64,000 nucleotides of DNA, taken from NCBI GenBank assembly GCA_043769085.1, contig JAYVJR010000047.1:10389-74388 (forward strand). Direction: 5' to 3'. The notes below the pieces were generated by a model. It saw nothing but the letters and a program-made list of their open reading frames with translations, was not told where the DNA came from and did no database searches. The translations under genes and the position numbers were made by a program. The DNA comes from Gammaproteobacteria bacterium (GTDB lineage: Bacteria; Pseudomonadota; Gammaproteobacteria; Steroidobacterales; Steroidobacteraceae). Positions 26,559 to 46,220 of this stretch are shown piece after piece (within the stretch, counting starts at the first letter, position 1; each line of letters begins with the position of its first letter).

Positions 26559-26584
26559 AACAGTAAATGCGCGCAAATCCGGTC
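26559..26584 (-). promoter_or_regulatory. Candidate shared (ECF-type?) promoter, copy C: GACCG-N16-CTGTT
   Basis: On the gene strand: GACCGGATTTGCGCGCATTTACTGTT, ending 35 nt before ATG 26523. Same spacing as the three other copies. Confidence 0.5.
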
Positions 26585-26690
26585 ATGGTGGTAGCCGTCG
26601 TGCTGATACGACAGCTGAGTGACATCGGGTTTCAACGCACAAATAATGCGTCGCGGTCCAGAGGTCGCAGAACCGGACCGCAACTGGCGC

Positions 26691-29531
26691 TCACGGTGCC
26701 GACTCCAATAATGGCAACGCGGCCAACGATTCCGGTGCCTCAAACTGCGGTGTCTGTGGCCCGATACTTCGATCCCGCAAGCGTTCCACCGTGCTGGCCG
26801 CGGCCTCAAACCACTCGCGCACGTTGACGCGGCCGTCCCGATTGCGATCATTGGCCGGCTGCAGGCCTTGCAGCAAGCCGAGCGTAAATAGCCCGTGCCT
26901 GCTGCGCGCATATTCCTGGGACTCCTCGTCGCCGCGCGACGCTAACATGAACCCGATCCGCGATGAGGCGGAGCGTTTCACCAGCGAACGGGGATCAAAA
27001 CGACCTACGACGTTACGTGCCTGGCAGGTATCAACGATCAAAAATCGTCGGCCTGCCGTTTGTCGCAACCGCTCGAAAATTACTGCCCAACCGAGCAGCG
27101 ACGCAGAATCATCCACAACCTTCCCTGCTAACACGGCATCCACGTCCACACTGCGGGCATCGCGCGGTACAAAATAGTAGTTGCCTGCGTCGTCACTGAT
27201 GCCATGTGATGCTAGAAAGACCATCACCGTATCATTGCCACGCACATCGGCGAGGCGTGCAAGTATGCTGCGGATCGCGGCCTGCGTCGGTAGCGTCCCA
27301 AGATCCGACAGTGTCTGCACATGAACCTGGCGAAATCGCCTCGCGCCCCAGCGACGCAGCATCGCGGCCACCTCCTCCGCATCACGAGCTGCGTAGGACA
27401 GCGCCACGCCCGGATCCAACTGGGTAAAATGATTGACGCCCACCGCAAACACGTACAAGTCTCCGGGTTCAATATTGTCGGCTGCAGCAGCAGGCTCGGT
27501 GATCAGTCGCTCCACCAGTCCGAGTGACCGCCCGTTGGAGATCTCGACGCGTATCGTCCGATCGCTGCGCCCTAACGGCAACGGCAATTCGCGCACCAGA
27601 GTCTGCTGATCGCGGCCCGACAATGCGCGCTCCACCGTTCGCGTTTGCGGGATGTCATTGATGTAGACGGTCATGGCCAGCATTGGCAGGCCGCTACTAC
27701 TCGCCGTGAGCAACAGCTTGGCATTGCCACTTGCCACTAGAGTAAGTCGTGGCGGAAGCGGCAGTGTTGCTAACAACCCCGGTAGAGATCGTGACTTAGC
27801 AGCGGCAGAATCCGCTCGCAAGGCGCGCGTGACATCAGCCGGTTGATAAAGATCGTTTTCAAATTGAACCGCGCGGAAATAGTCCGGCCAGGTGTCGAAT
27901 CCATGCGCCCACTGCCAGCCGACGAGTTCATCGCCCAAGGGCGATGACGCATAGCGTCCGGATGGTGTCCAGGCCACCCATTGAGTTAGGCGTCTGCTAA
28001 CAAACAGTGACAGCACTTCCGCACCTGACGAGGCTGCGAACCAACGCACGGTTCCATCCGCCAGTAACGCCACCACCCAGCGACCGTCCGCACTCACGTT
28101 AACCTGCCGGACCGTGGTGCTGGTACGCACCGCCCAGCGTTTTTGGCCCTCGACGGACAGCGCATGCAGCGCCCATTCCGTGCCTGCCACAACCTGCCGG
28201 CCTGCCACATCGATGGCATACGAGTGCACACGCTCCAGTGGTTCCAGCGCTAGCGCACGACCATTGACGCTGAGCGACTCAGCCGAGAATGTCACCGTCA
28301 AATTGGACTGACGTGTCACGGCAGCGCGCAGCGCTGGCTCTTGAGCGCTCTGCGTTGTAAGCAGCAAATGGGCCACATCAAATCTCCATCCTGAGTTGTT
28401 GCCCGGTCGGCGCACGCCGACACCTGTTCCGTCCGCCGTCAAACGCAGTTCCGTGCGGGCATCGAAGTTGTCGACAGCGCCCTCCAGACGCCATCGCGGC
28501 TGCCCGTCATCGGACAGAATGGCTAACACGCCTTGTTCGGATCCGAGCAGCAGTTGCTGCGCCGAGATACTGACCAAGGCGCCAATCCGGCCGGTGGCCG
28601 TAACTAGCGACGGCAATGACCGGCCATCCGCCATGCGCCAGCGAGCAATTACGCTCTCTGAGCCGACGCTCGATTCGCCGGTGGCAAAAAAGGTACGACC
28701 GTCGCCAGACCATGCAACACGGGTCAGCTGGCGAAACCGATCCACCGCAGGCGGGATCAGCTGCCGTTGAACCGCCAGCGTATCGGCTCGCAATATGGTC
28801 ACGCGCGGTGCATCATTGAATCCGATCGCAACCTCCGCGCCGCTGGGTGAAATTGAGAGACCGAATGGCTCGCGACCTGCCAGTCCTGCGACGCTACGCC
28901 CTAACAGCGTGAAATCCGCACCATAGAGACGCACAAACCCGTCCAACGACGCTGTCAGCAACTGTCCTTGCGGCGTGAAATCCAGTTCCAGCAATTTGTC
29001 GCGATAGTCCCGGTCGCTGAATACTAGTCGCCGGTCCTGCAGACGAAACACGCGCAACCCTTCACGGCCCATCAGCCCAACGGCGAGGAAACGGCCATCG
29101 GGCGAGAATTTCAGACTGGCAACGACTTCTTCCAGATCCGGCAGCCGCCCTAACAGCGCGCCGGTCGCGCGATCAACCAGGTAAATGCAGGCGCGATGCT
29201 CGATGTCCCAGCATGTCCAACCGCCGGTCGCAAGCGTGTGCCCGTCCGGGGACAATGCCAATGCATACAGCTGCCCTTGGGCACCGGCCCTCGCCGGTAC
29301 TCTCAGAGTGTCAAGCAAGCGGCCATCGCTCAGCCGCCAACGGCGCAGCGTCTTGTCTTCCGACGCTGACCAAAACTCGCCGTGTGCAGGGTCGGCAACC
29401 AGCGCATGAACAAACGCCGCGTGTCGACCCGCTTCAATTTGTAACAAAGGATCGGACGCCGCCAGCGCCAGCCTCGCCAACAGGCAAAAGAACACCAGCC
29501 AGCAGCGCGACGCGCACACTGCAACGCTCAC
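26691..29531 (-). CDS. Signal-peptide WD40 beta-propeller protein with C-terminal caspase-like (peptidase C14) domain
   Basis: WD40-like repeats (SASEDKTLRRWRL, LALSPDGHTLATGG, LKFSPDGRFLAVG...). The C14 dyad context is VMVFLASHG and FLIVDTCQA. Its GTG start overlaps the TpsB stop (GTGA). Confidence 0.88.
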   Translation of the reverse strand: MSVAVCASRCWLVFFCLLARLALAASDPLLQIEAGRHAAFVHALVADPAHGEFWSASEDKTLRRWRLSDGRLLDTLRVPARAGAQGQLYALALSPDGHTLATGGWTCWDIEHRACIYLVDRATGALLGRLPDLEEVVASLKFSPDGRFLAVGLMGREGLRVFRLQDRRLVFSDRDYRDKLLELDFTPQGQLLTASLDGFVRLYGADFTLLGRSVAGLAGREPFGLSISPSGAEVAIGFNDAPRVTILRADTLAVQRQLIPPAVDRFRQLTRVAWSGDGRTFFATGESSVGSESVIARWRMADGRSLPSLVTATGRIGALVSISAQQLLLGSEQGVLAILSDDGQPRWRLEGAVDNFDARTELRLTADGTGVGVRRPGNNSGWRFDVAHLLLTTQSAQEPALRAAVTRQSNLTVTFSAESLSVNGRALALEPLERVHSYAIDVAGRQVVAGTEWALHALSVEGQKRWAVRTSTTVRQVNVSADGRWVVALLADGTVRWFAASSGAEVLSLFVSRRLTQWVAWTPSGRYASSPLGDELVGWQWAHGFDTWPDYFRAVQFENDLYQPADVTRALRADSAAAKSRSLPGLLATLPLPPRLTLVASGNAKLLLTASSSGLPMLAMTVYINDIPQTRTVERALSGRDQQTLVRELPLPLGRSDRTIRVEISNGRSLGLVERLITEPAAAADNIEPGDLYVFAVGVNHFTQLDPGVALSYAARDAEEVAAMLRRWGARRFRQVHVQTLSDLGTLPTQAAIRSILARLADVRGNDTVMVFLASHGISDDAGNYYFVPRDARSVDVDAVLAGKVVDDSASLLGWAVIFERLRQTAGRRFLIVDTCQARNVVGRFDPRSLVKRSASSRIGFMLASRGDEESQEYARSRHGLFTLGLLQGLQPANDRNRDGRVNVREWFEAAASTVERLRDRSIGPQTPQFEAPESLAALPLLESAP

Positions 29532-31207
29532 AAATTGAATTGCAAACCGACAAAGATCCGCGGCTTGCGATTGCCTTCCGACGCCACCAACTGATCGAGT
29601 GGATCGGCAAATTCAACGAACCCCTGCCAACGTCCGTCGGCGGACGTGAGTCGCATGCCGAGACCCCAGGAGGCCGCTCGATCAAGGGCCGCTTCGTTGA
29701 TGGGATCGTGACGACGGGCCTCGCCCCAATCACCAAATGCATAGGCCGAATACGCGGGACCATTGCGCAGCGGCACAACACTGGCGTAGCGCAGCTCTAT
29801 TTTTACGGCTTTGCCCTGATCTCCGGTCAATTCGGATGCATCATAGCCACGACCAAAGGGCTCGCCGCCGAAAGAAAACAGCTCGGGCGACAGCAGACTA
29901 TCGGAAGTTTTCTGCCATTGTGCCGCCGCTAACACCGACCAACCACCACCTAACGATTGTAATCGGGCGGCGTACAGTGTCATCTTGCTGAATGTGGCAT
30001 TGCCATTGAGCCGCGACAACGGCAATGCCGCGGTACCTGACATACGCGCGCTTAGTATGTCGAGTCCCCGCGTTCCTTCAAGGTCAAGCAGATTGACGCC
30101 ACGTGCCGCGTCGGTCCAGTCGACAGTCAGCCCGATGCTAACCGTGCGTACGCGATCCTGAGAGAGCTCCTCGCCTATCAACTCCGTACGGCCATCAAAC
30201 CCTCTTAGCGCCATGCGCAGAGCGACGTTGCGTGTGCGCGAACGCAGCAGTGGCAGGTTCGCTCCGAGCGTCAGTGCCTGGGCTTCGGTCTTGAGGTCAG
30301 GGCTCGCGAGGTTGGCCGCAATCCCGGGACGCGACTTGAGTGCCAGATATGACACCGAGCCGCTCGCGCCGCGCCCACCCACAGGTAGGCTGTACTGGGC
30401 GCTGCCATACTGCAATTCCCCATGCGGACTGAACCCGCCGCTGAGTTGCAATTGATCCCAATGCCCTAACACGCCGGCCAGAGAGACGTCGGCCAACACG
30501 CGCTGCGGGCCTAACGAGCGACTGTTACGACTGTTATATGCCGCTGTGGTGCGTAGCGCATTGCGTTGAACGTCGATCACGAGCTGCGCCGCCCCCGGCA
30601 TGGACGGCGATGGCAGCAGCGTACCGTGCGCCGTGGATCCGGCGAGATCATTAATCAGCAGCAACTGGCGTTCCAGCACCGCCGCTGTCAATGGTCGTGC
30701 AGCGCGCAGGGCATCGGCGTAACGCTCCAACCGTGAATTGTCCACAGGCATATCGCCGCGAAAAATCACACGATCGATAAATCCTTCAACGGCCAGCAGT
30801 CGCACGTGTCCGGACACTATCTCCTGTGCAGGCACTAATACCTGCGACAACAGATAGCCGTCACGGCGATAACGCGTCGTGAGTGCGTTGGCGAATCTGA
30901 ACAACTCCGCCACGGACATCTCGCGATTCAACAGATCGTGCGCCGCTGCCTGCAATTCTGCCGATGAATACACAGTCGCGCCGTCGAAGGCTATTGACTG
31001 CAACACGAAGCGCAGATTTTGCGCCTCCGGTGGCGCAACTTGCTCAGGAATGGCAGGCAATTGGCTGCGTTGCACCTCGGTCGGCGCGCGCAGTAGCTGC
31101 AATTCTCGTTGTATTTGCCCCGGCTCCAGACCTGCCGGAATGGTTACCTGCGCCACGACCGCGCCAATACTGGCAAAGTATCCCAACCCTAACAACAGAC
31201 ATTTCAC
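29528..31207 (-). CDS. ShlB/FhaC/HecB-family two-partner-secretion transporter (TpsB)
   Basis: Signal peptide, POTRA region (TTRYRRDGYLLSQVLVPAQEI..G.VRLLAVEGFIDRV) and a 16-strand-type barrel ending ...FVGLQFNL. Confidence 0.9.
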   Translation of the reverse strand: MKCLLLGLGYFASIGAVVAQVTIPAGLEPGQIQRELQLLRAPTEVQRSQLPAIPEQVAPPEAQNLRFVLQSIAFDGATVYSSAELQAAAHDLLNREMSVAELFRFANALTTRYRRDGYLLSQVLVPAQEIVSGHVRLLAVEGFIDRVIFRGDMPVDNSRLERYADALRAARPLTAAVLERQLLLINDLAGSTAHGTLLPSPSMPGAAQLVIDVQRNALRTTAAYNSRNSRSLGPQRVLADVSLAGVLGHWDQLQLSGGFSPHGELQYGSAQYSLPVGGRGASGSVSYLALKSRPGIAANLASPDLKTEAQALTLGANLPLLRSRTRNVALRMALRGFDGRTELIGEELSQDRVRTVSIGLTVDWTDAARGVNLLDLEGTRGLDILSARMSGTAALPLSRLNGNATFSKMTLYAARLQSLGGGWSVLAAAQWQKTSDSLLSPELFSFGGEPFGRGYDASELTGDQGKAVKIELRYASVVPLRNGPAYSAYAFGDWGEARRHDPINEAALDRAASWGLGMRLTSADGRWQGFVEFADPLDQLVASEGNRKPRIFVGLQFNL

Positions 31208-31749
31208 GGTGAATTCTCCGCTTGTCGCAATACTTCGACACGACGATTCTGCGATGCCTCGGGCGCGAGACCTGCCGCAGGTTGGCGGCTGCCTAAGCCA
31301 TTAATGATCATCAACCGGCCAGGAACGCCAAGCTCCACCAGTCGATCACGGACCGCTGCGGCGCGGCGCCTGGATAGCTCATCGTTGTAGGCCGGTTGCC
31401 CAAGGGCATCGGTATGACCGACGACTTGAATTTTGGCGGCCGGGTCCAGCGCGAGTATGCCGAGCGCCAGCGCCTGCAGTTGGGCCGTGGATTGTGCAGG
31501 CAACTCAGCCGAGTCGTAGGCAAAACCAACCTGCAGACTCAGCCCGTTCGAATTGCTCGTCGCGACATCAGCTACCCGCCGAATGGATCGTGTCTTCGTC
31601 GCTGGCTTCGGCGGTTGCAATTGTCGCACCACCTCATCGACTTCGAGTCGCTCGTCGGCGCGTACCACCTTGGGCTCCGCCGCGGACGCACCTATCGTGC
31701 GTGCCAGCAACACGATCAAGGACGTGAGGCTAACGACCGCGCGTGTCAT
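31204..31749 (-). CDS. OmpA-family peptidoglycan-binding protein
   Basis: OmpA_C block: VGFAYDSAEL...VVGHTDALGQPAYNDELSRRRAAAVRDRLV...NRRVEV. Start taken at MTRAVVSL; the ORF also allows 31773. Confidence 0.85.
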   Translation of the reverse strand: MTRAVVSLTSLIVLLARTIGASAAEPKVVRADERLEVDEVVRQLQPPKPATKTRSIRRVADVATSNSNGLSLQVGFAYDSAELPAQSTAQLQALALGILALDPAAKIQVVGHTDALGQPAYNDELSRRRAAAVRDRLVELGVPGRLMIINGLGSRQPAAGLAPEASQNRRVEVLRQAENSP

Positions 31750-33784
31750 CGCTGGAGCAACCGTTATCGGCATACGGTGTAGTGCATAGGTAGTCGCTCA
31801 CTCGACCATCGGTTGCATCGCCGTTGGTCGCGGGAGCGATTACGTGCTGGTTATTGGTAAAGACATCCGGACTGGCCCCGGCGACGCTACCGCTGCGTCC
31901 CAGATCCGCTGTGCGTCCGACACCCGGTCCGCCGGCTAACACGGTTGCGGCTGGCCCATTGTCGGTTCTATCACCTGCGGTTGGACGGGTCGACTCCGCG
32001 ACGTTCGGCGACTCGGCTCCGAGCGGCGGATCTCCCGGTGTGGGTGTGGGTGTCGGTGTGGGTGTGGGTGTGGGTGTGGGTGTGGGCGGTGCCGGCGGTG
32101 GTGGTGGTGTCAATACCACCGCGATCGATGTCAAGGGATCGCTCGCACTGCCCGCGAGATTGGTCGGCACCCCGCCACTGGGTCGCACGGTACCGACCGG
32201 AGTTTCAGTCAAAAACGCAAAGACGTTAGGCCCCGGCAGGGAGTTTTCATAGCCGTTGTTCGCATACGCGTGAAATAGCAGCGGCGCCTCCGTACGTCGT
32301 TGCGATAATCCGTCTTCGGTTACATAACTGCGCACCGTTGATCCAGGTGTCGAGTCTGAAATCAGACGTTGTTGTCCTTCGGTCAGTTGATTTTGCGAAT
32401 TGCGCAAATCGATAGACACAGCGGACGCGAGTGACAAAGTCCGTCCGACTATAGCGATGAATCCCGCCGGTTGACTATTCGCGCTGCGTGCAATCAAGTT
32501 GGCGGTGGCTGCCAGCGTTACCTGGCCCGCATCCGATAGCACTTCGATGATGCCAGCCTGCCTGCCAGTGCCCGCGGACACATTGAGCTCACCGCCAACC
32601 GCAGTGCCTTGAGTCGACACGACGCTGACGAAACCGCCCTGACCGCTACCACCACTGGCATCAGCGGCGCACGCCACTGTGCCGCAGGCGCGCACCTGAG
32701 CCCCCGCATCGATCTGCACCAGATCCGTATTGAGCGGTGAGCTACCTAACGGCCAACGGCCGCCGACGCTGATATTGCCGCCGCCACCGCCACCATTGGC
32801 CAACAATTGGGCCGTCGAAGTCAGAGTGACGTTATTACCGACGAGCGCGAGGTCGCCGGCACGATCAGCCGTAGTGACGCCACTCGCATTGAGCGTACCG
32901 CTTACGCGAATACCGCCGGACGCTAGCAATCGGATACTGCCGCGCTGGCCGTTCGATGCGGTCTGCGCGCGCACCACGCCCGTCAGATTAATCGCCTGAT
33001 CCATGACCGCGCTTGCTGCGGGAACAGAGAGCAGCAGAATCCGACCACCATCTGCTAACAACTGACCGCCAACGTCGAGCTGGATTCGGCTCGGGGCGCC
33101 CGTCGTATCAAGAACTGTAGCACTCAGGGAGTCGGGTGTGGCCAGTCGGATCAGACCATCGCCAAACAGATCCAGCGTAAAATAGCGGGCCGATCCCAAA
33201 GTGATTTTTCCCAGCCGCGCGGTGATCGTGCCTGAATTGCGCACCGACGGCGCAACCAGTGCGACCAGCCCGCCGTCTGCGACCGTGATCGTACCAGCAT
33301 TGCTGATCGTGGCCGTGTTAGCCGCTGTTGTTAGTTCGTTAAATGCGTAACGACCCAACGCCGACGCCGGATCCGCCATGAATGCGTCATTACCAATATT
33401 GGCCGTGCTCGCCACAAAACTTGCTGCATCGATTCGTGCGCTATTGCCGATGACGATGCCGTTCGGGTTGACGAGGTAAACCTGGCCATTGGCGCTGAGC
33501 GTGCCTTGCAGCGAAGAAAACTGGCTACCGGTCACTCGATTAAGCAGCGCGGCCTGGGCATTCGGTTGAACAAACAGCACACGCTCAGTCGGCCCGATGT
33601 CAAAGGAGCGCCAGTCGATGACGGCACGCGCACTGGTTTGTGTGACCGTGGTGCTGCCCGGAGTGCCTTGTATGGTTGCGCTCCCAGCGCGGACGACTCC
33701 GTTGACCGGGTCAGCGAACGCCGTTGTCCCGACAACGCCGCTGGCGAGCACCGCCGGAATCAGCGAGCTCCAGCGTCTCGTCAT
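31730..33784 (-). CDS. Short TpsA exoprotein with filamentous-haemagglutinin N-terminal (TPS) domain and a Thr-Pro linker
   Basis: TPS domain motifs (IDWRSFDIG, LNRVTG, LSANGQVYLVNPNGIVIG), Gly-rich beta-helix repeats, then PPPPPAPPTPTPTPTPTPTPTPTPG. No toxin-like C-terminus recognised. Confidence 0.88.
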   Translation of the reverse strand: MTRRWSSLIPAVLASGVVGTTAFADPVNGVVRAGSATIQGTPGSTTVTQTSARAVIDWRSFDIGPTERVLFVQPNAQAALLNRVTGSQFSSLQGTLSANGQVYLVNPNGIVIGNSARIDAASFVASTANIGNDAFMADPASALGRYAFNELTTAANTATISNAGTITVADGGLVALVAPSVRNSGTITARLGKITLGSARYFTLDLFGDGLIRLATPDSLSATVLDTTGAPSRIQLDVGGQLLADGGRILLLSVPAASAVMDQAINLTGVVRAQTASNGQRGSIRLLASGGIRVSGTLNASGVTTADRAGDLALVGNNVTLTSTAQLLANGGGGGGNISVGGRWPLGSSPLNTDLVQIDAGAQVRACGTVACAADASGGSGQGGFVSVVSTQGTAVGGELNVSAGTGRQAGIIEVLSDAGQVTLAATANLIARSANSQPAGFIAIVGRTLSLASAVSIDLRNSQNQLTEGQQRLISDSTPGSTVRSYVTEDGLSQRRTEAPLLFHAYANNGYENSLPGPNVFAFLTETPVGTVRPSGGVPTNLAGSASDPLTSIAVVLTPPPPPAPPTPTPTPTPTPTPTPTPGDPPLGAESPNVAESTRPTAGDRTDNGPAATVLAGGPGVGRTADLGRSGSVAGASPDVFTNNQHVIAPATNGDATDGRVSDYLCTTPYADNGCSSDDTRGR
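32037..32096. repeat. (GGTGTG)n hexanucleotide microsatellite, about 9 units, coding the (Thr-Pro)n linker of TpsA
   Basis: Read directly: gtgtgggtgtgggtgtcggtgtgggtgtgggtgtgggtgtgggtgtggg. In frame, so unit gain or loss keeps the reading frame. Confidence 0.9.
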
Positions 33785-33804
33785 GCCGCGGGTCGCGACA
33801 GCCT

Positions 33805-34923
33805 TCACCGATGTACCAAAGTAATCGTGACCTGACGCGCGGCCAGACTGCCGCTCGCCATTTCAGCGGGCGCAACCGCATCCAGCGCGAAGCTCGTGCC
33901 ATCTTCAACGTCGACTTTGCGTATCGACCGCGTTTTGGTTTTGAGACCGCGCGTTGCCGGGCGACCGCAATTACCGAGATTGAGCGACGCAGGGGTCGGC
34001 ACCGCATTAGGAGCGTTAGGATATTCCGCGTTAGGCATACCAGCGCTACCGACCTTGACGATACTGCGCGTCGCCGTCATCAGGGCCGAGTTTGCACAAG
34101 GCTGCAGCTCCAAAATCAGCACTTCATTGCCCGGTTCGTCTGCAAATTCGTAGGGTCCCAATGATTCAAGACCGCCGCCACCTGACTGCGTGCTATCGAT
34201 TTGTGTCGTCCGACCACGCCCATCGGTATTAAATACGCGGATGAGGCCCGGCAGACTCGGTCGGTAATGCACCATGAAACGCTCGCCGCCGCGAAATGTA
34301 TGATTCTGCGGATCGATCCGTTGACTCACGCCTCCCGGTGACAGCGTATGGATTTCGTAGGCAATCCCCGCATAGACATCGCCATTGTTAGGAAAGCCGA
34401 TGTCTGCTGCGCCGCCGGCAGCGCCCGGCATCGGGTAAGAATCGGTACCGGGATACGAGTCCTGGCCCGGGTAGCCATTGGCGCCAGGGTAGGTGTCCGG
34501 TGCGCCCCCAGGCATGCCCGGTTGGGGTGCTGCCGACGAATCAGGCGCTGATTCGTAGTTGGGATAGGGGGCAGGCATCGGTGCAGTCGCACCAGTCGCA
34601 CTGGGATACGCGAACTCAGCCGAACGTGTTGTTGACTTGCGACCCAGCCATTGGGTAATTGCGCCATTCATACCTTGTGACAAAGAGCTCGCAAGCGCAA
34701 CTCCTGAACTCTGAACAACCGTCGCCAAAGTCGCAGCAAACAGGTCACGCATGCGAAAACGCTGCGGTGAATTTTGGGCGGGCGCCGGAGAATTCGTAGC
34801 GTAGCCAGGGTGTGCGGCGGGATACGCCGGGGTTCCGGGCGACTGTGCACCAGCGATGGTTGTCCCACCAATGCTCAGCATCAGGAGTCCCCAACTTTTC
34901 CAACGGTGATTTCGGCGCGCCAT
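33805..34923 (-). CDS. Secreted Pro/Tyr/Gly-rich protein with DUF4384-like C-terminal domain (tentative)
   Basis: Start MARRNHRWKSWGLLMLSIGG, 7 nt after GAAGGAGA. Low-complexity YPG repeats. The C-terminal beta-rich domain is called DUF4384-like from memory only. Confidence 0.7.
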   Translation of the reverse strand: MARRNHRWKSWGLLMLSIGGTTIAGAQSPGTPAYPAAHPGYATNSPAPAQNSPQRFRMRDLFAATLATVVQSSGVALASSLSQGMNGAITQWLGRKSTTRSAEFAYPSATGATAPMPAPYPNYESAPDSSAAPQPGMPGGAPDTYPGANGYPGQDSYPGTDSYPMPGAAGGAADIGFPNNGDVYAGIAYEIHTLSPGGVSQRIDPQNHTFRGGERFMVHYRPSLPGLIRVFNTDGRGRTTQIDSTQSGGGGLESLGPYEFADEPGNEVLILELQPCANSALMTATRSIVKVGSAGMPNAEYPNAPNAVPTPASLNLGNCGRPATRGLKTKTRSIRKVDVEDGTSFALDAVAPAEMASGSLAARQVTITLVHR

Positions 34924-34974: not shown

Positions 34975-35000
34975 AACAGTAAAACTTAGCCGTAACGGCC
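34975..35000 (-). promoter_or_regulatory. Candidate shared promoter, copy D: GGCCG-N16-CTGTT
   Basis: On the gene strand: GGCCGTTACGGCTAAGTTTTACTGTT, about 50 nt upstream of the first gene of the TPS/caspase operon. Confidence 0.45.
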
Positions 35001-35079
35001 AAGAGCTTCCAAAATTTTGAACTTGCCCATCGGCTGCGCAACGCGCAAATTCGCAGGCGTCGCCCACTAAGGTCGTGCC

Positions 35080-38116: not shown

Positions 38117-41100
38117 TCAATCCAGTTGTTCAGGGATCTGGCGCATTTTCGTCAAGTCCGCGTTAGGCAACATCGCTTGTTTCTGCGCCCGCCGCAGCGG
38201 CTCGAGGTACTGCCTGCCGAGCTGTGAGTGTTGGCGTGCAATTGCATTGGCATCAATAACCAGTCGTCTCGCGTCCTCGATCCGCCCGGCTTCTGCAAGT
38301 GCTTCTGCAAGCGCCACGCTGGCCTGCAGAACAAGGGGACTTTTTCGGGACAAGTGGGCCCGCCGCCAATCGAGCGCTGTTCGCAGAATGGGCACTGCTA
38401 GATCGGCGCGACGTTGATGCGTGTAGAGCCGACCAAGGAGAACCATACGCTCATACTCGAGCATCTGGAAAAAAGCGGCTTCATTCGCGCCTATTATCGC
38501 CAGCGAGGGTGTTTGGAGCAGCGGCGCGGCAGCGAAGAAGTCAGTATTTTCTATCATAGCTCGAGCGCGTTGTATGCGAAGACTTTGCGCTAGATGCTTG
38601 TCCCGCCATGCCGTAGGCTCCCTGACTGCAGCTTCCTGGGCGGCTTTTTCTGCTGTGTCAATCGTGGCAATCGATTCCTCGATAGCCCCTTGAGCCAATA
38701 GGTTTTCGGCTCGAAAAAGCAGTAGATGCGATGTCAATACTGGTTGCCCTACTTTGTTGGAAATCTCTTCGGCTTGAGCCAGCGCCGAATCGGCTTCTTT
38801 GAAGCGACCCAGCATAGTGAGTTGGGGCGCCATAGCTAACAACATGTTAGCATGTTGTTTGGTATTTGGTCTTGTCTTTTCGCGCACAGAGATCGCACGC
38901 CTGCTGAGTTTTAGTGCCGCGTCTGGTTCACCCCAGAGAAACAAGGCTCTGCCCAGGTCCGTTCTGATTGTTGGCAAATGGAATGACTCATTGTCGCCGC
39001 TCTTGGCCACTGCGAGCGCCTCAGCACTGCGCAACATGTCGATAGCTTGACGGAACTTGGATACGACCCGCAGGAACCCGCCGTAACGAAGTTGTGTTTG
39101 TAGCGTATCGACATGGTCGGGGCCGTTGATCCTCCGTGCAATCTCAAGCCCTCTGCGGTAATTCTGTTCAGCAGGCACCTCCATCCACAGGGAGCGCTGT
39201 GCGTCAGCCAGCATCACAATGTTTTGAACGCGAAAAGCTTCCGGCGTACCAAGTCTTTCCTGCGTTTTTACCGCCAAGCGATACATTTGTTCCGACAAAT
39301 TGTGGTGCAAAGCGTCGCTTTCGGCGAGGCCGGCTCCAAGCAGGGCGTTGGCATAGTCCGGATCGTTAGGATAGCGATCCCGGAACAGCGCCACTGCCCG
39401 GTGCACGAGGAATAGCGCCTGCTTGAGATCCGTGCTGCGCCAGTACTCGCCAAGCCGGATATCCAGTCGTGCTCGATCCAGACTAACAAGATCATTCCGT
39501 GACTTCAGTAACGCGTCCGCCTCAGACAGTGGACCCATCGCGTTCTTCCAGCCTTCGGCGTCATAAAGCGCACCACCATATTTTTGAAGTGCGTCGATCA
39601 CGCGCGGATCATCGCGAGCAAAACTGCGCTTAGCCAGATCCAGACGACTCTTAAACAGGATGACGCTGGTATCGATAGCACCCATTTCCGAATAGAGAGA
39701 TCCGACCGTATTTAGAAGATCGTCATGGGTGACTGGATCGGATGTCTTCATGGATATCAGACGCTGAGCCGCGCGATCAAGTAGTTGCAGCGCCGTGGTG
39801 TTCTGTGCTTTCAGAGGGTCAACTTGCTGGCGGCTGTTCGAATTAAAAATGTCGAGCAGAAAATCTTTCACAAACGCCGCTTTCGTGGCCTCTGCGTTAG
39901 CAATGCGCGTTTGCGCCTCCGCGCGGCGTGATTGCTGCCCGGCCTGATCTGCCTGCCAAATAGCAGTGGCCAGACCCACTGCCAGAGACACAAAAACCAG
40001 ACAAGCGGCGACCACGGCCCAACGATAGCGCCGCAAAAAAGTGCCGAGGACGTACATTCCCACCCGTTCGCGCGCTGCGACCGGCATATGCTGTTGGTGA
40101 CTAACGAGGTCCTGTCGCAATTCATCGACCGTTGCATAGCGATGCGCCGGCTCTTTGCGCAGGCACTTCGCAACGATCGCATCCAGATCTCCTTGCAGCA
40201 GGCGCGCTGCAACCGGCGGCGCATCCCTGTCACGCGCAACTCGGCTGGGTGCCGGTGGTACGTCGTGAACAATTAGACGCACCATGCGTGATAGCGCCAT
40301 GCCCGCACTCGCCCAGGGACGGCGATCTGTTAGCAACTCGAACAGCAGCACACCAAGTGCGTAGACGTCTGTCGCTGTAGTTACCAACTCGCCGGTCAAC
40401 TGCTCTGGCGCTGCATAATCAGGCGTGAAGGGTGCTCGGGTTAGATCACCCTGATGCCAATTCTCCGGATCCAGTTGTTTGGCAATACCGAAATCAAGCA
40501 GTTTTACGCGGCCCTCAGGCGTCACAAGGATGTTCCCAGACTTCAGGTCACGATGAACAATCAGATTGCGGTGCGCATAGGCAACGACTTCGCAGACCTG
40601 AGAGAAAAGTGTCAGGCGTTCTTCCAAGTTTGAGCTGCGTGCGCGACAATGCTCGATTAACGGCACGCCAGCCACATATTCAACAACGGCGTACGGGCGT
40701 CCATCCGTCGCGAGCCCGCCGTCGAGCAGCCGTGCGATGCCCGCATGATCGAGTCGCGCAAGAATTTGCCGCTCAACATTAAAACGCGCCACCTGGCTCG
40801 CCGCCTCTGGTCGCAGCAACTTGATGGCCACCTGCTGTTCGAACGCGCCATCGGCTCGATGAGCCAGGTACACATCACCGGACCCGCCATGACCGATCAA
40901 TTCGCCGATTGCCCAAGTACCAATGCGAGTACCTGCGGCAAGCCGCGGCGTGCCATCCGTGGAATCGACTCCGAACTCGGGTGGCGAATCGAGCGGGCCT
41001 GTTGTTGTACCATGCGCCGTTAGCAGCGAGCGCAACTCCGCATGCAGTGGTGCATCGGCACCGCAAGCGCGAGCCAGGAAGACACTGCGCTGCGACTCGG

Positions 41101-41158
41101 GCAACTCAATGGCGCCGGCGAACAATGCTTCAATTCGCTGCCAACGATCCTGTTCCAT
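38117..41158 (-). CDS. Receptor Ser/Thr protein kinase with TM helix and TPR domain (paralog of 35080-38019)
   Basis: GHGGSGDVY, VAIK, HRDLKSGNIL, DFGIA, APEQ. TM helix AVVAACLVFVSLAVGLATAIW. Start at MEQDRWQRIEALF parallels the paralog N-terminus. 73 nt downstream of the sigma gene. Confidence 0.92.
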   Translation of the reverse strand: MEQDRWQRIEALFAGAIELPESQRSVFLARACGADAPLHAELRSLLTAHGTTTGPLDSPPEFGVDSTDGTPRLAAGTRIGTWAIGELIGHGGSGDVYLAHRADGAFEQQVAIKLLRPEAASQVARFNVERQILARLDHAGIARLLDGGLATDGRPYAVVEYVAGVPLIEHCRARSSNLEERLTLFSQVCEVVAYAHRNLIVHRDLKSGNILVTPEGRVKLLDFGIAKQLDPENWHQGDLTRAPFTPDYAAPEQLTGELVTTATDVYALGVLLFELLTDRRPWASAGMALSRMVRLIVHDVPPAPSRVARDRDAPPVAARLLQGDLDAIVAKCLRKEPAHRYATVDELRQDLVSHQQHMPVAARERVGMYVLGTFLRRYRWAVVAACLVFVSLAVGLATAIWQADQAGQQSRRAEAQTRIANAEATKAAFVKDFLLDIFNSNSRQQVDPLKAQNTTALQLLDRAAQRLISMKTSDPVTHDDLLNTVGSLYSEMGAIDTSVILFKSRLDLAKRSFARDDPRVIDALQKYGGALYDAEGWKNAMGPLSEADALLKSRNDLVSLDRARLDIRLGEYWRSTDLKQALFLVHRAVALFRDRYPNDPDYANALLGAGLAESDALHHNLSEQMYRLAVKTQERLGTPEAFRVQNIVMLADAQRSLWMEVPAEQNYRRGLEIARRINGPDHVDTLQTQLRYGGFLRVVSKFRQAIDMLRSAEALAVAKSGDNESFHLPTIRTDLGRALFLWGEPDAALKLSRRAISVREKTRPNTKQHANMLLAMAPQLTMLGRFKEADSALAQAEEISNKVGQPVLTSHLLLFRAENLLAQGAIEESIATIDTAEKAAQEAAVREPTAWRDKHLAQSLRIQRARAMIENTDFFAAAPLLQTPSLAIIGANEAAFFQMLEYERMVLLGRLYTHQRRADLAVPILRTALDWRRAHLSRKSPLVLQASVALAEALAEAGRIEDARRLVIDANAIARQHSQLGRQYLEPLRRAQKQAMLPNADLTKMRQIPEQLD

Positions 41159-41231
41159 TTTTGATCCTCTGCGGGGCATGTCATCGGGACTGCGAAAATC
41201 CTGGCGCACCATACCTGCAACGGTCGGATAT

Positions 41232-41822
41232 TCAGGTGCCTATTGCCGGATCGAGCGCTCGATTGAGCCAGGCGCGAGCTAACACCCAGTCGCGGCGAAC
41301 GGTGCGCTCCGAGAGATTGAGCGCCTTGGCGGTTGCCGCGTCATCGAAGCCACCAAAATAGCGGCATTCCACCACTTGGGCGAGTCGTGGCGCCTCGATC
41401 GACAAAACTTCCAAAGCATCATGCAGGTTCACGATCGTCGCGTCGGAGTCATCGCTACTGATGTCCGGCGCCGCCGTCAGTGGCACGTGCGCCGCACCTG
41501 CGCCGCGCTTGGACGTGAGCCGCGCCTGTGCATGGTTGACCAGCACGTGGCGCATCGCCAGTGCCGCGGCGCGCAGAAAGTGCTGATCGTCGTTCCAACC
41601 GGCCGCACTGCGGAGCTTAAGATAGGCCTCATTCACGAGCACAGTGGTTTGCAGCGTGTGGCCAGCACCGACTCGCTTACGCTCACGATGCGCCAAACGC
41701 TTGAGTTCATCGAAGAAGAGCGGAACCAGGCGATCAGCCAGCGCCCTGACCGGCGCGGCCGTTGCCGGATCAACCCACTGGGACAGGGAATCGGACTCAC
41801 TTTCGTCGGCCAATGGATTCAT
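41232..41822 (-). CDS. ECF-type RNA polymerase sigma factor (kinase-associated, TIGR02999-like)
   Basis: 196 aa. Region 2 (LVNEAYLKL) and region 4 HTH (AKALNLSERTVRRDWVLARAWL). Directly upstream of a Ser/Thr kinase, and no anti-sigma gene is present. Confidence 0.9.
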   Translation of the reverse strand: MNPLADESESDSLSQWVDPATAAPVRALADRLVPLFFDELKRLAHRERKRVGAGHTLQTTVLVNEAYLKLRSAAGWNDDQHFLRAAALAMRHVLVNHAQARLTSKRGAGAAHVPLTAAPDISSDDSDATIVNLHDALEVLSIEAPRLAQVVECRYFGGFDDAATAKALNLSERTVRRDWVLARAWLNRALDPAIGT

Positions 41823-41826
41823 GAAT

Positions 41827-42014
41827 CTAGTTTAGGCACAAAGGCCTGGAATTTCGAGATGGCGTGACCGGATCGGACGCGATTTGCTGTTCTGAAGTGT
41901 GTACTCAAAATTCAGAGCAGCGCCGCCATGAACAATGCCCGACGACGATCTATCTGCCTGTTTATTGGTGAAGCGATTATGACACTCTGCATCGGTAGTC
42001 GCGCGCTCGCGCAG
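41827..42014 (+). repeat. Duplicated 5' module (about 100 bp upstream region plus the first 29 codons), copy 1
   Basis: About 70-80% identical by eye to the reverse complement of 46041-46220. MNNARRRSICLFIGEAIMTLCIGSRALAQ vs MNHARRRSSYRFAGILFMTLCVESRALAQ. Confidence 0.7.
41866..41891 (+). promoter_or_regulatory. Candidate shared promoter, copy A: GACCG-N16-CTGTT
   Basis: GACCGGATCGGACGCGATTTGCTGTT, ending 36 nt before ATG 41928, in the divergent region next to the sigma gene. Confidence 0.5.
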
Positions 42015-43922
42015 GCCGACCAGATTTTGCCGCCGCTTGGCGGCCCAGGGGGTGGCCAGTTCGTGGCTCGCTGCCAACTGGGCGAAATTCTCAACGGTCT
42101 GGAATTACGCACTGGCGATGATGTGGACGGTATCCGCCCCATCTGCCTCGCCGCAAATTCGGCCAATGTCGCCGCGTCACGCCGCGCCTTTGCCACCGGT
42201 TTCGGTGGACCCGGTGCCGGCGTAGTCGCGCTCCTGTGTCAGGACACAGCACCTGCGGTGATCGGTCTTTTTGTCGCTTCGGAAGGCGCTGATTCCCAAA
42301 TCGTAAACAACATCCATCTATATTGCGGTCAGGTTGCGCCGGGACTAAAGCCGACTGGCTACCCTGCCGCTGTATTTGATGGGCCCGGCTATACCGCACC
42401 ACCACACCCTTTCTTTTTGATTGGCCAATCGGTTCAACGACAATCTGGAGACCAAAGTTGTCCCGACAATCTCGTCGCCGTCGGTATCAACGGCCGATCA
42501 GGTATTTGGTTGGACGCACTCGGCCTGATCTGTGGCGCAGCGCCTGCCAATCCTCGGCCGGTCATCTCATCAATCGGGCGGGTGGGCAGGCCGTCCACAC
42601 CCGGCCCGGCGCGTCCCATCTGCGAGGTCGCACGCGAGTCACGAGCGCGTAACTCACCTAACGCCCCTCGGTTGGAAGCCATGTGTGAGGCTAGTAAACC
42701 GACGGTTAGCTCAATCGGGCGGGTGGGCGGGCCGTCCACACCCGGCCCGGCGCGTCCCATCTGTGAGGTCGCACGCGAGTCACGAGAGCGTAACTCACCA
42801 AATGCCGCCCGACTCGAAGCCATGTGCCGCTCAGCAGACTTGCAGGCCCAGCCAGATCTGGCGACAAGCGGCCTGTTGATCGCACAGCAGGATCCGTTAG
42901 CCATGGCGCTTCGCGGTCAGCAAACGGAAGGCCCCGGCCAGCGAGGATTCGATATCGGCATGGCGGCGGCGGAAGGACAAACGGCACCCGGACCTGGCAA
43001 GCAGCGCATCCATGACGCTCTACCTCCGGCAGAACAACGCGGTTTTGAGGCGGCCGTAGCGTTTTCCCTGGAGCGCAACAGAAACGCCCAGTTCGCCGCC
43101 GCCGGAGCAATCATTGCGCGCGCGGACCCGGCAGTTGCGGCCGCGCATAACGTTGAATCAGACGTCTTCTACTGGTTGGGATTCGATATCGCGAGCGCCA
43201 TTTTTGGTGATTTGGCGTTAGGCGCGTTAGGTGATACCGAAATGAACGACGAACATACAAGGATTCTCAATGGCTTGAGCCCAGCCGGACAGCGCGGCTT
43301 CACCGCATCGATGCAGTATCACTTAAGCCGCGATTACGCCCGATCCCTGAGCATTGCTGTAAATCCTGCGATCGCGGATACCGATGTGGTAATCAGTCAG
43401 GTCTACGGCGGCGGCGGCAGCGCTGATTCTTCTTTTGTTAGCGATTTCATCGAATTGCTGAACCGAGGAACCTCCGCAGTCAATCTGAGCGGCTGGTCGA
43501 TTCAATATGCATCCAGCGGCGGACCTGGTTGGCAGGTTGCCCCACTGACGGGCACGATCGCACCCGGCGGGTACTTCCTGATCCACAATTCCAATGGCGC
43601 TGGAGCCGGGAACCCACTACCTAACGCCAATGTCCGCAGTCTCCCTTCGCTGGCAGCCAAAGCGGGGAAAATTGCGCTCGTTAGAAACAACGCCACGCTC
43701 ATTGGCTTCTGCCCGGCAAGCGCCTACATGGTCGATTTTGTCGGCTATGGCGCAGCGAATTGTTCCGAGGGAGGCGCACCGGTAGCGCAGTTAGGCAACC
43801 AAACCGCTGCAGTTCGCAACGCGGCAGGCTGCAGCGATACGAACGCGAACGCAACGGACTTTGAAGTGGCTGCGCCGCAACCACGCAATCAAGCCGCGGG
43901 CGCGGCGAATTGCGAACGCTAG
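41928..43922 (+). CDS. Secreted multidomain protein: Gly-rich lectin-like N-domain (tentative), duplicated Cys module, unassigned shared domain, C-terminal lamin-tail domain (LTD)
   Basis: Signal peptide. GGPGGGQF...VDGIRPIC repeats (jacalin-like, weak call). Shared domain GFDIGMAAAEGQTAPGPGKQRIHD...AVAFSLERNRN. LTD block VISQVYGGGG..FIELLNRGTSAVNLSGWSIQY. Confidence 0.8.
   Translation: MNNARRRSICLFIGEAIMTLCIGSRALAQADQILPPLGGPGGGQFVARCQLGEILNGLELRTGDDVDGIRPICLAANSANVAASRRAFATGFGGPGAGVVALLCQDTAPAVIGLFVASEGADSQIVNNIHLYCGQVAPGLKPTGYPAAVFDGPGYTAPPHPFFLIGQSVQRQSGDQSCPDNLVAVGINGRSGIWLDALGLICGAAPANPRPVISSIGRVGRPSTPGPARPICEVARESRARNSPNAPRLEAMCEASKPTVSSIGRVGGPSTPGPARPICEVARESRERNSPNAARLEAMCRSADLQAQPDLATSGLLIAQQDPLAMALRGQQTEGPGQRGFDIGMAAAEGQTAPGPGKQRIHDALPPAEQRGFEAAVAFSLERNRNAQFAAAGAIIARADPAVAAAHNVESDVFYWLGFDIASAIFGDLALGALGDTEMNDEHTRILNGLSPAGQRGFTASMQYHLSRDYARSLSIAVNPAIADTDVVISQVYGGGGSADSSFVSDFIELLNRGTSAVNLSGWSIQYASSGGPGWQVAPLTGTIAPGGYFLIHNSNGAGAGNPLPNANVRSLPSLAAKAGKIALVRNNATLIGFCPASAYMVDFVGYGAANCSEGGAPVAQLGNQTAAVRNAAGCSDTNANATDFEVAAPQPRNQAAGAANCER
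42558..42839 (+). repeat. Tandem 141-bp (47-codon) in-frame duplication
   Basis: P(V/T)(I/V)SSIGRVG(R/G)PSTPGPARPICEVARESR(A/E)RNSPNA(P/A)RLEAMC occurs twice. The two DNA copies are near-identical. Confidence 0.9.
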
Positions 43923-44039: not shown

Positions 44040-44600
44040 ACAGGATTGTCGCTGAGATCATTGCGGCGGTCAGTTGCGCATCTTCGACCAAAAGACCTCT
44101 AAAGATCTTGCGGCACATGCGACCCAAATTCATATGCAGGCGCTGCAAAGCCATGACCCTGCCGCTGGGCATGAGCCGCCCGATTGATCCTGGACTACCG
44201 GGTCCTGGACTCCTGGCGCATGTGCTGAGCTCGAACGCTCGATCCTCTCTGGCTGGGTCGGCGTGGCGTTTTTTATTGCCGTTAGTGAAAGAACTCTCGA
44301 ATCTTGTATTGAGCGCTAACAAGCTGCGTGCCGATGACACGTTGGTACCCGTGTTGGCGCCAGGCTTAGCGCGCGCGGCGCGCGGCGCGCGGCGGAGAAA
44401 TCGGCATTGACTCTGGCCATCCGCTACGCGCTGGTGCGGTGGGAAGCCCTCACTCGCTTTATTGATGATGGCAACATCGAGGTCGACAACAACATTTGTG
44501 AGCGAGATATGCGAGCCGTCGCTTTGGTAAGAAAAAATTGCATGTTCATGCGATCCGATCGCGGCGGCCAACGCGCCGCTGCTGGCGCCAGCGACTCAAG
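44040..44600 (+). pseudogene. IS66-family transposase remnant (internally deleted, frameshifted)
   Basis: RPKFICRRC...GPGLLAHVL...LRADDTLVPVLAPG, then in the next frame IRYALVRWEALTRFIDDGNIEVDNNICERDMRAVALVRKNCMF. These match conserved IS66 Tnp blocks, but large parts are missing. Confidence 0.75.
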
Positions 44601-44681
44601 AAACTGCTCAATCGAAAATGTTAGGAAAGATCTATTTGTCTTGTACCAACGGTTACGTTGCAACAGCGGTAAAGGCAGTTG

Positions 44682-46127
44682 CTATTGCGGCACCCGAATG
44701 GCGGTGGGGAGGTTTTCCTTGAACGCGTCTCGCGCACTCGGATTCCCCAGCAGCGGAATGAGATAGCTCATCGCCGTGTTGAGGTTCTGCTGTTCGCAGG
44801 CCGATTGCGCGAGCCGCACCTGCAGGTCGTCTGCGTAGCGCTGCGTGTTCGCACGCAGGTCAGCGATGAAATTCATCGTGAACTCGACATAGACGTCACA
44901 GTCCTGCGCGCTCGCCTGGCACTGCATATGGCGCGCCGGCTGCTGATAGGACGGATCGGGCGCGACCTGGCTGCAGTCGCGTTCTGCGGGGCGCGGTGGC
45001 ACGACGGGAGGTGTCGAAACGGCGGCCGGCTGCGCCTCCCCCTGCGACAGCGCGGCGCCCTGCACGGCACGGGCCAACGGAGAGCCCGCGTCGACGATCT
45101 GAGTGTCGGGGTGAACCACACTCTCCACGCCCACGCGCGGCGCCATCCTCTGCTTCGCACGGGACTTCACGCCGCCGTTCGCTCCGAAGCGAACCGCGTC
45201 ATTCGCCGCGATGGCCGTTGTACTCGTCAGCTGCTGCGCGAGCACTAGGCTGCGCACACGCGCGGCAATGATGGCGTTAATCTGAGCCTTCGCGTTTCGC
45301 TGCTGACAGCGAGTCTGCTCGATGCGAGTCTGCAAATCATCGAGCCACCCTTCAAACTGCTCCTGCGTGTACGCGAAGGTGTTGTTCGCCATCTTGTAGT
45401 CCATGATGCCGCTCGCGTAGTAGCGGATGTATTTGTTCACGTAGGACGGCGACGGAGCGGGCCGGCGACACGGCTGCTGTGCCGCCTGCGCCTGCGCGGC
45501 CTGATCTGTCGTGACGTTGCGCGAGAGCAGGCGCGCACTCATCTGCGCAAGCTTGGATTGCTCGCAATGCAGGCGCTGTACGCGCACCTGGATGTCGCCG
45601 AGGATGTCGATTTCCCTGCGCCGCAGAAAACCTGTGCCGGCGATGACAGCGGTGACGTCCGGAAAGCCGGTGCCCACGCGGCCGCTCGGATAGGGAGCGT
45701 ACTGCACCGGCGGCTCGAATGCGCATTCGCTCGCCATCTGTAACTCAAACTTGAACAGCAGGCGCGTGTTGGCGGTCTGGCATCGGACCTGCTCTGTGAG
45801 CGCCTGCAGGTCGCCCATCACCTGCTCCAGGTTCCGGATTGTCGAAGTCTGGGAATCGATCACCATGCGCGTGTCAAGAAAGCCGCTGGAGTTAGTGCGC
45901 CGGTAGCTACCGTCGTACGGGCGGGGAGCTGGTCCCTTTGGGCACGGCGTCAGGTCCGGCGCCACCACCTGAGATGCGAGCGCCGCATAGCTGAGAGTGG
46001 GCTCGCGGACGGCGGACGTGGAGATCTGAGGGCTGCCCTGCTGCGCCAGCGCGCGACTTTCGACGCAGAGCGTCATAAACAGAATGCCGGCAAATCGATA
46101 GCTAGATCGTCGACGAGCGTGGTTCAT
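44682..46127 (-). CDS. Secreted hypothetical protein with four internal Cys-containing helical repeats
   Basis: Signal peptide homologous to that of 41928. Repeats: LQALTEQVRCQTANTRLL, IQVRVQRLHCEQSKLAQM, LQTRIEQTRCQQRNAKAQ, LQVRLAQSACEQQNLNTA. No family recognised. Confidence 0.7.
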   Translation of the reverse strand: MNHARRRSSYRFAGILFMTLCVESRALAQQGSPQISTSAVREPTLSYAALASQVVAPDLTPCPKGPAPRPYDGSYRRTNSSGFLDTRMVIDSQTSTIRNLEQVMGDLQALTEQVRCQTANTRLLFKFELQMASECAFEPPVQYAPYPSGRVGTGFPDVTAVIAGTGFLRRREIDILGDIQVRVQRLHCEQSKLAQMSARLLSRNVTTDQAAQAQAAQQPCRRPAPSPSYVNKYIRYYASGIMDYKMANNTFAYTQEQFEGWLDDLQTRIEQTRCQQRNAKAQINAIIAARVRSLVLAQQLTSTTAIAANDAVRFGANGGVKSRAKQRMAPRVGVESVVHPDTQIVDAGSPLARAVQGAALSQGEAQPAAVSTPPVVPPRPAERDCSQVAPDPSYQQPARHMQCQASAQDCDVYVEFTMNFIADLRANTQRYADDLQVRLAQSACEQQNLNTAMSYLIPLLGNPSARDAFKENLPTAIRVPQ

Positions 46128-46220
46128 GGCGATGCTTCTTTAAAATTTGAATACACAGTTCAAAACAGCAATTCGCGCCCGATCCGGCCACTTCATCTCG
46201 AAACAGGTGTTTTGTCCTAG
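46041..46220 (-). repeat. Duplicated 5' module (upstream region plus signal peptide), copy 2
   Basis: Its reverse complement aligns with 41827-42014. Confidence 0.7.
46164..46189 (-). promoter_or_regulatory. Candidate shared promoter, copy B: GGCCG-N16-CTGTT
   Basis: On the gene strand: GGCCGGATCGGGCGCGAATTGCTGTT, ending 36 nt before ATG 46127. Confidence 0.5.

Follow-up and report, generated by a model that had tools for sequence, protein, structure and literature searches.

To our knowledge, only two ECF43-type sigma factors have been studied. The closest described systems, EcfP/PknT of Vibrio parahaemolyticus and EcfK/PknS of Xanthomonas citri, combine a sigma factor of the extracytoplasmic function (ECF) type, in which an uncharged xTTx patch replaces the sequence DAED, with an adjacent gene for a transmembrane (TM) Hanks-type kinase and with no anti-sigma gene. 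ECF43 is a kinase-activated group with the consensus QTTA at this patch, and Xanthomonadales hold 343 of its 1032 known members (PMC13147305); in EcfP the patch reads STTA, and it is the second threonine that is phosphorylated (PMC8999054). A locus with comparable traits is described here from a Steroidobacteraceae genome (assembly GCA_043769085.1), in a stretch of 64,000 nucleotides (nt) of contig JAYVJR010000047.1 (positions 10,389 to 74,388, forward strand), hereafter the window. It holds an ECF43-like sigma factor gene and four copies, A to D, of a bipartite motif, GRCCG-N16-CTGTT, which is the subject of this work. Like EcfP and EcfK, the resident sigma factor has an uncharged patch (QTTV), its gene adjoins that of a TM Hanks-type kinase, and no anti-sigma gene was found among the open reading frames (ORFs) of the window scanned with Pfam; the source organism is a gammaproteobacterium of the Xanthomonadales/Lysobacterales type. 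The locus differs in containing two kinases, and phosphorylation of its sigma factor is proposed by analogy only. It differs also in its candidate targets, which are genes for a secreted lectin, protease, two-partner secretion (TPS) exoprotein and caspase, whereas those of EcfP and EcfK are type VI secretion system or polymyxin-resistance genes.

Promoters of the sigmaR/SigH/SigE type of ECF sigma factor follow the pattern GGAAT-N18-GTT, and those sigma factors are autoregulated and under anti-sigma control. Written as GRCCG-N18-GTT, the window motif has an identical geometry, with a five-base upstream box that starts with G and a GTT core. However, the upstream box is GGCCG or GACCG rather than GGAAT or GGAAC, conservation extends to the T that precedes it and the GAT that follows, and the resident sigma factor is neither autoregulated via the motif nor paired with an anti-sigma factor. 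The kind of element, an ECF promoter that marks a regulon, is well known, and the sigma factor falls in a described group. No promoter consensus for ECF43, EcfK or EcfP was found in the accessible literature, the primary EcfP paper and the supplements of the ECF reclassification lying outside that scope. ECF promoters are usually predicted by looking upstream of the sigma factor operon, an approach that fails for ECF43 types because they are not autoregulated.

The four sites are most likely promoters, of the class recognized by RNA polymerase when it holds the sigma factor of the locus, which is of the TIGR02999/ECF43 type. The features on which this assignment turns are as follows.

41866..41891, plus strand: site A, exact pattern match; predicted promoter of the gene for a secreted protein with a lamin-tail domain (LTD)
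46164..46189, minus strand: site B, exact pattern match; predicted promoter of the gene for a Cys-rich secreted protein
26559..26584, minus strand: site C, exact pattern match; predicted promoter of the trypsin-tachylectin gene
34975..35000, minus strand: site D, weaker predicted promoter of an operon encoding a hypothetical protein, TPS, OmpA, ShlB and WD40/caspase proteins; overlaps a hairpin
41232..41822, minus strand: ECF sigma factor gene, 196 amino acids (aa), ECF43-like (PF07638, 124 bits, residues 29-190; TIGR02999)

The four sites in the window

A first-pass annotation of the window had drawn attention to the four copies, and a pattern scan located GRCCG-N16-CTGTT at all four of the places it named, with the sequences as quoted and a spacer of exactly 16 nt in each of A, B, C and D. 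The common core that it gave for the downstream part, TTTrCTGTT, was wrong, since site B reads AATTGCTGTT, with AATTG at that position, and the core common to all four is TTrCTGTT. The sites end 35-51 nt before start codons. Measured from the final T of CTGTT, this gap is 36 nt at both A and B and 35 nt at C; at D it is 51 nt if translation begins at ATG 34923, and 45 nt if it begins instead at ATG 34929. Site A is divergent from the sigma factor gene and lies 44 nt from its ATG. Within the window, B and C face a gene in the proposed direction only, C being placed between two tandem minus-strand genes.

The rough figure given there for chance occurrence, below one match in the window, also proved sound, in that 0.41 exact matches are expected from 100 dinucleotide shuffles, with a largest shuffle count of 3, against 7 observed. 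The additional matches, at 18084 (plus strand), 20414 (minus) and 57336 (plus), all lie inside ORFs, have nothing else in common with A to D and score less than 4 bits with the family matrix described below. The pattern, which was defined post hoc, by itself also picks up three unrelated intragenic places; these exceed the shuffle expectation, probably since codon structure is lost in dinucleotide shuffles. No sigma-70 promoter was predicted at A to D, the count for the region being 6 versus 6.3 by chance, and inspection by eye of the 5' untranslated regions (UTRs) behind A, B and C revealed no consistent hairpin structure in common.

Conservation of the motif and its match to the sigma factor

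A protein search with the sigma factor, limited to one genome per species, gave 80 loci in which the sigma factor is 46-71% identical to the query. They come mostly from metagenome-assembled genomes (MAGs) of Lysobacterales (Dokdonella, Rudaea, Tahibacter, Rhodanobacteraceae and Steroidobacteraceae), with a few from Burkholderiales and one from a Gemmatimonadota MAG, and three further loci from close homologues brought the set to 83 loci and 1.29 Mb in total. The weight matrices were built from loci picked for containing the sigma factor, so the background rate, about one site per 100-500 kb, derives only from wrong-strand flanks. ORF calls in the relatives are heuristic, and early ORF-based calls of target genes, noisy in GC-rich DNA, were used qualitatively only.

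The spacing of the motif is conserved in this set: GRCCGGAT-N(k)-CTGTT occurs 25 times at k=13, twice at k=18 and not at all at the other 14 spacings between k=6 and k=21. Iteration of a weight matrix led to the consensus TGGCCGGATTcggCGCcGTTTCCTGTTt and to approximately 120 sites in the loci. When a matrix trained without the window was applied to it, the top four positions were B (32.0 bits), A (31.0 bits), C (27.7 bits) and D (12.4 bits), and the next best position scored 9.5 bits. The best scores in 200 second-order Markov windows had a mean of 11.5 bits, a 95th percentile of 17.6 bits and a maximum of 23.3 bits. Since their scores of 27.7-32.0 bits exceed that maximum, A, B and C are, as judged from sequence, members of a motif family that was defined wholly in other genomes.

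A site of at least 20 bits is present in 57 of the 83 loci, and in 36 of 83 a site lies within 250 nt upstream of the sigma factor start on the opposite strand, as site A does. Upstream of the sigma factor 71 sites are found on the minus strand versus 1 on the plus strand, and no site points into the sigma factor gene within 1 kb upstream of it in the 83 loci, the same being true of the window. A second peak consists of plus-strand sites just beyond the sigma/kinase pair. These counts of strand and position indicate that the sites radiate outward from the regulator pair and that the sigma factor is not autoregulated via the motif, autoregulation being usual for ECF sigma factors but no defining trait of them. 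Site density in the first kb is 0.49 per locus-kb versus at most 0.02 on the wrong strand, and a Ser/Thr kinase is encoded in 79 of the 83 loci. Because the sigma-adjacent sites, and A and D in the window, could be read toward a regulator gene, direction was tested on sites away from the 5' ends of the sigma factor and kinase genes. A coding-like ORF start was present only downstream of CTGTT in 35 cases and only on the opposite side in 2; 3 sites were flanked by such starts left and right, and 8 had none at all. In the relatives, a site typically stands approximately 45 nt (median) from the start codon.

The identity of the upstream box follows a residue of the sigma factor. The resident protein, a small type with regions 2 and 4 only, matches TIGR02999 with 180 bits (cut-off 126); in its region 2.2, LQTTVLVNEAYLKL, residues 58-61 are QTTV, a position taken by the acidic DAED in most sigma factors and by QTTA in most of its relatives, and its recognition helix in region 4.2 is SERTVRRDW at 171-179, including Arg177. 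Among loci with sites, the Arg177-type helix SERTVR-R-DW is accompanied by a GGCCG or GACCG box in 44 of 44, and A, G, S or T at residue 177 is accompanied by a TGCCG box and the downstream box CTGTA in 15 of 15. None of these loci departs from the correspondence between residue 177 and the first G of GGCCG (Fisher p=2.5e-14, without phylogenetic correction), and the window sigma factor has the Arg177 form that matches its own GGCCG/GACCG boxes. The earlier reading of the fixed-spacing element as an ECF promoter is therefore supported by a spacing conserved near homologous sigma/kinase pairs, by its directionality and by its covariation with the sigma factor, all of which point to promoter function.

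In the mechanism that is proposed, region 4.2 of the sigma factor would bind the upstream box T-G-R-C-C-G-G-A-T, where Arg177 is the residue likely to touch the first G of GGCCG, and region 2 would read the GTT core of the downstream box TT-r-C-T-G-T-T, with transcription predicted to start a few nt downstream of CTGTT. By analogy with EcfP/PknT and EcfK/PknS, the resident sigma factor would be inactive until the adjacent TM Ser/Thr kinase phosphorylates the second threonine of the patch (T60); since the sigma factor is without an acidic patch, it would bind core RNA polymerase only after this phosphorylation, and kinase 2, the second kinase of the locus, may phosphorylate T60 too. The active sigma factor would then switch on three or four units, namely the genes for the LTD protein, the Cys-rich protein and the trypsin-tachylectin protein, and the TPS/ShlB/WD40-caspase operon. 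As the motif does not lie upstream of the sigma factor gene, control would be post-translational rather than autoregulatory.

A broader proposal, advanced tentatively as a possibility that may well not hold in full, is that the motif amounts to a promoter code, the first of its kind, for those Lysobacterales sigma factors that belong to ECF43/TIGR02999 and are activated by a kinase. Such a code would consist of T-G-G/A-C-C-G-G-A-T, N13 and C-T-G-T-T, with TGCCGGATT...CTGTA and TGTCC-N18-CGTAT as sister flavours and with Arg177, contacting the first G of the box, as the specificity determinant; each sigma/kinase pair would switch on a local, fast-changing arsenal of secreted lectin, protease, adhesin-like and TPS-caspase genes, the targets being recruited by cassette copying. 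A consensus together with the matching sigma factor residue would permit genome-wide prediction of regulons in the clade, and the specificity rule would be checkable by a one-residue, one-base swap. Kinase-gated sigma/promoter pairs could also serve as orthogonal parts, and the finding would tie Ser/Thr kinase sensing to sets of secreted lectin, protease and TPS-caspase genes.

Site D and competing explanations

Several observations weigh against the assignment of A to D to the resident sigma factor. The upstream box is without AAC, a feature of the -35 element in many ECF promoters. In several genomes, two or more paralogous sigma/kinase pairs go with one motif, so that the resident sigma factor is not singled out. 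The 15 loci with a residue other than Arg form one clade (Rudaea-like), and the covariation, confined to that clade, may go back to one event in evolution. A and B are copies of each other and C possibly has the same origin, which leaves at most 2-3 independent observations in the window. A scan of metagenome contigs for the exact 17-base pattern TGRCCGGAT-N10-TTVCTGTT yielded at least 120 matches of mixed GC content, almost all chance-like, and among the matches listed only the best (L127, 37.6 bits) adjoined a sigma factor and a kinase gene. Finally, the 12.4 bits of site D are not significant alone, with 0.39 such matches expected per window, and D overlaps a terminator-like hairpin, flagged by a terminator scan at 35003-34985 on the minus strand. 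The upstream box of D is contained in this 8-bp hairpin, CTTGGCCG-TTA-CGGCTAAG, which is followed by the T-rich tail TTTTACTGTT (34985-35003, minus strand).

The low score and the flagged hairpin with its tail are what would be expected if D, and D only, were a chance match or an intrinsic-terminator-like hairpin, the TPS/caspase operon being driven otherwise. This is judged unlikely, although it is the best placed of the alternatives. There is no minus-strand gene ending upstream of D that could be terminated there, kinase 2 being encoded on the plus strand, and terminator-like matches in the region are not above chance (16 versus 19.3). Matches of the strength of D are expected about 0.008 times at 20-80 nt upstream of the approximately 45 gene starts of the window. 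In the locus L208 of a close relative, in which the first operon gene is 83% identical, the orthologue of D scores 17.4 bits and retains both boxes, TTGGCCG and GTTTTGCTGTTTGTCT, whereas 6 of 10 spacer bases are changed and the hairpin is destroyed in an alignment that is otherwise 87% identical. The L208 contig (ERZ25039524 contig_41924) shows many short, fragmented gene calls, including those of the sigma factor, the WD40 gene and the operon's first gene; long-read assembly with frameshift errors seems to be the cause, and its gene content is to be read with care.

Loci L209 and L211 bear on D from a greater distance. There, TPS, tachylectin and hypothetical-ShlB-WD40/caspase genes adjoin a more distant PF07638 sigma factor, and the units, including the orthologue of the D operon, are each preceded by an analogous motif, TGTCC-N17/18-CGTAT, 30-60 nt before the start codons. 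This motif was found three times in L209 and five times in L211, at the following positions.

L209, plus strand: 3620, 9937
L209, minus strand: 9916
L211, plus strand: 3109, 7428, 9920, 15622
L211, minus strand: 9884

The distant sigma factor of these loci has a DTTS patch and the recognition helix TDRTVRRDLEKARLLL; the gene set is conserved and the motif is different. AAC (-35) and CGT (-10), frequent though not universal in ECF promoters, are absent from the window motif, the boxes of which are TGGCCGGAT and CTGTT; unlike it, the flavour of L209 and L211 carries the common CGT, as CGTAT. Because L208 keeps the boxes, no minus-strand gene ends upstream of D, and the orthologous operons of L209 and L211 are preceded by the motif flavour of their own locus, D is favoured as a promoter and probably is one, albeit with less assurance than the group of sites as a whole.

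A different possibility is that the promoter class is rightly identified and that the reader at A to D is a paralogous TIGR02999 sigma factor encoded elsewhere in the genome, or several such factors interchangeably. The family is very large (6554 matches at E<=1e-10), and Xanthomonadales contribute the 343 ECF43 members already mentioned (PMC13147305). The same flavour occurs at several loci of one genome, for example L026 and L055 (OY970073.1) and L020 and L023 (JADKJL01), and L020, L023 and L055 each have a second, more distant sigma factor match. Against this, the sites cluster tightly at each sigma/kinase pair, as the densities given above indicate, site A is 44 nt from the ATG of the resident sigma factor, and the Arg177 form of that protein fits the boxes beside it. 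A paralogous reader is improbable as the explanation, the resident sigma factor being the preferred candidate, and cross-recognition among paralogous sigma factors is possible. The first-pass statement that no other sigma factor gene lies nearby was borne out across the window, in which 41232-41822 was the only one found (ORFs scanned with Pfam; tblastn).

Still less probable is that the motif is the operator of another DNA-binding regulator, such as a response regulator or a repressor, rather than a promoter element. A conserved sequence upstream of co-regulated genes would fit an operator too, as would an upstream box without the usual ECF AAC. However, the two boxes of the motif differ from each other, which makes it asymmetric, their spacing is rigid, and the motif is strictly directional toward gene starts (35 versus 2); the sigma factor, encoded at all 83 loci, and the kinase, encoded at 79 of them, are the only consistent regulators, and it is the recognition helix of the former that has a residue covarying with the box. 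No Rfam family or other known RNA family was matched between 24000 and 48000. That the sites resemble one another merely as relics of segmental duplication devoid of regulatory meaning is very improbable, for although the module of approximately 236 nt shared by A and B even includes part of the sigma factor coding sequence and C has some 5' UTR similarity to both, the motif is found again in front of unrelated genes in dozens of further genomes, the similarity there being confined to the boxes and the spacing fixed across loci.

Two other candidates were rejected. Sigma-54 promoters (GG-N10-GC; TGGCAC-N5-TTGC) do not fit, as A and C are without the GG and the bases 10 nt on are CG and not GC. 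The reverse orientation of the motif (AACAG...CGGYC), in which the sigma factor would be autoregulated, is geometrically possible for A and D, but B and C face no gene when read in that way, and the direction counts of the relatives also oppose it.

Duplicated cassettes, kinases and predicted target genes

Sites A and B belong to one duplicated module with 71% identity, the two copies of which were delimited as follows.

41779..42014, plus strand: module copy 1 (local alignment with copy 2, 178 of 251 columns identical; blastn E=2e-19)
46041..46286, minus strand: module copy 2, around site B (same alignment and blastn match)

The module comprises the first 40 nt or so of the sigma factor coding sequence, the intergenic region, the promoter motif, the 5' UTR and a signal peptide of 29 codons. 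The signal peptides of the A and B target proteins are 66% identical, and the mature proteins are unrelated. C has the boxes and a little 5' UTR similarity in common with A and B, and D only the boxes. This arrangement hints at a way of acquiring new targets through duplication of a cassette, in which a divergent promoter together with its leader and signal peptide is placed onto an unrelated gene. A remnant of the 5' end of the sigma factor gene is still visible upstream of B, at about 46240-46286 on the plus strand, where it opens a 30-codon ORF starting with ATGTCCAAAAATTG; tblastn detected no further remnant of the gene.

The kinases and predicted target genes of the window are listed below.

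38117..41212, minus strand: Ser/Thr kinase 1, with a Hanks kinase domain, one TM helix (396-422) and TPR repeats (Pfam, TM prediction)
35080..38019, plus strand: Ser/Thr kinase 2, with the architecture of kinase 1 and a TM helix at 384-405 (Pfam)
41928..43922, plus strand: A target, secreted protein of 664 aa with a lamin-tail domain (Pfam LTD; signal peptide)
44682..46127, minus strand: B target, secreted Cys-rich protein of 481 aa with no known domain (no Pfam or NCBIfam match)
24181..26523, minus strand: C target, secreted trypsin-tachylectin protein (Pfam Trypsin and Tachylectin)
26691..34923, minus strand: D target operon of five genes (Pfam; gene coordinates overlap or abut)

The gene for kinase 1 begins 19 nt past the stop codon of the sigma factor gene, and kinase 1 is presumed, by analogy with PknT and PknS, to be the activator of the resident sigma factor. 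Kinase 2, divergent from site D, has no sigma factor gene of its own and may represent a second input to the resident sigma factor. The first product behind each of A to D starts with a signal peptide; in the D operon, the TPS and WD40-caspase proteins carry one too.

The D operon encodes, in order, a hypothetical protein of 372 aa, a TPS exoprotein, an OmpA-like protein, a ShlB/TpsB transporter (POTRA-ShlB) and a WD40-caspase protein. It thereby resembles two-partner secretion loci (TpsA/TpsB, ShlB/FhaC type) and CHAT/caspase-WD40 proteins, containing as it does a TPS domain, POTRA-ShlB and a WD40-caspase, and differs in that these genes form one unit adjoining a sigma/kinase pair behind the motif, which is also the case in L209 and L211. 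The last gene (26691-29531, minus strand) encodes WD40 repeats with a C-terminal caspase domain (Peptidase_C14) and has a weak match to the NCBIfam model caspase_w_EACC1 (42.6 bits versus a cut-off of 140). It is unusual for a single unit to join a caspase to a TPS exoprotein and its ShlB transporter, and the same arrangement was observed in L209 and L211.

Targets in the relatives are likewise secreted and include tachylectin fusions and LGFP, YadA-head, S74-chaperone, beta-helix and beta-propeller proteins, tachylectin genes being motif targets also in L010 and L209. A recurrent secreted protein of 96 aa (for example ...AQSGAGPYDIKSVVIAGGGSP...), with no Pfam match, is encoded by the commonest gene directly behind the sigma-adjacent motif in Dokdonella-like loci. 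Its genes were located as follows.

L016: 3927-4217
L021: 859-1149
L030: 2687-2977
L035: 9580-9870
L056: 9354-9644
L057: 3265-3555

In Rudaea-like loci, two copies of the motif stand back to back, one directed toward the kinase gene, with the box TTGCCGGATT...TTGTTGTAT, and the other toward a secreted-protein gene. The paired positions are given below.

L038: 13606 (minus strand) and 13643 (plus strand)
L053: 8184 (minus strand) and 8221 (plus strand)
L068: 13609 (minus strand) and 13646 (plus strand)
L045: 4606 (minus strand) and 4634 (plus strand)

On this evidence the kinase gene itself seems to be under the motif in the Rudaea-like clade, an arrangement that would give positive feedback. 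A further sequence, ATGGGCAAGTTCAAA (TTTGAACTTGCCCAT on the kinase strand), was noted upstream of a Ser/Thr kinase gene in the window (about 35033-35047), in L208 (about 9400) and in L006 (about 5958-5972), and possibly belongs to the promoter of the kinase gene itself.

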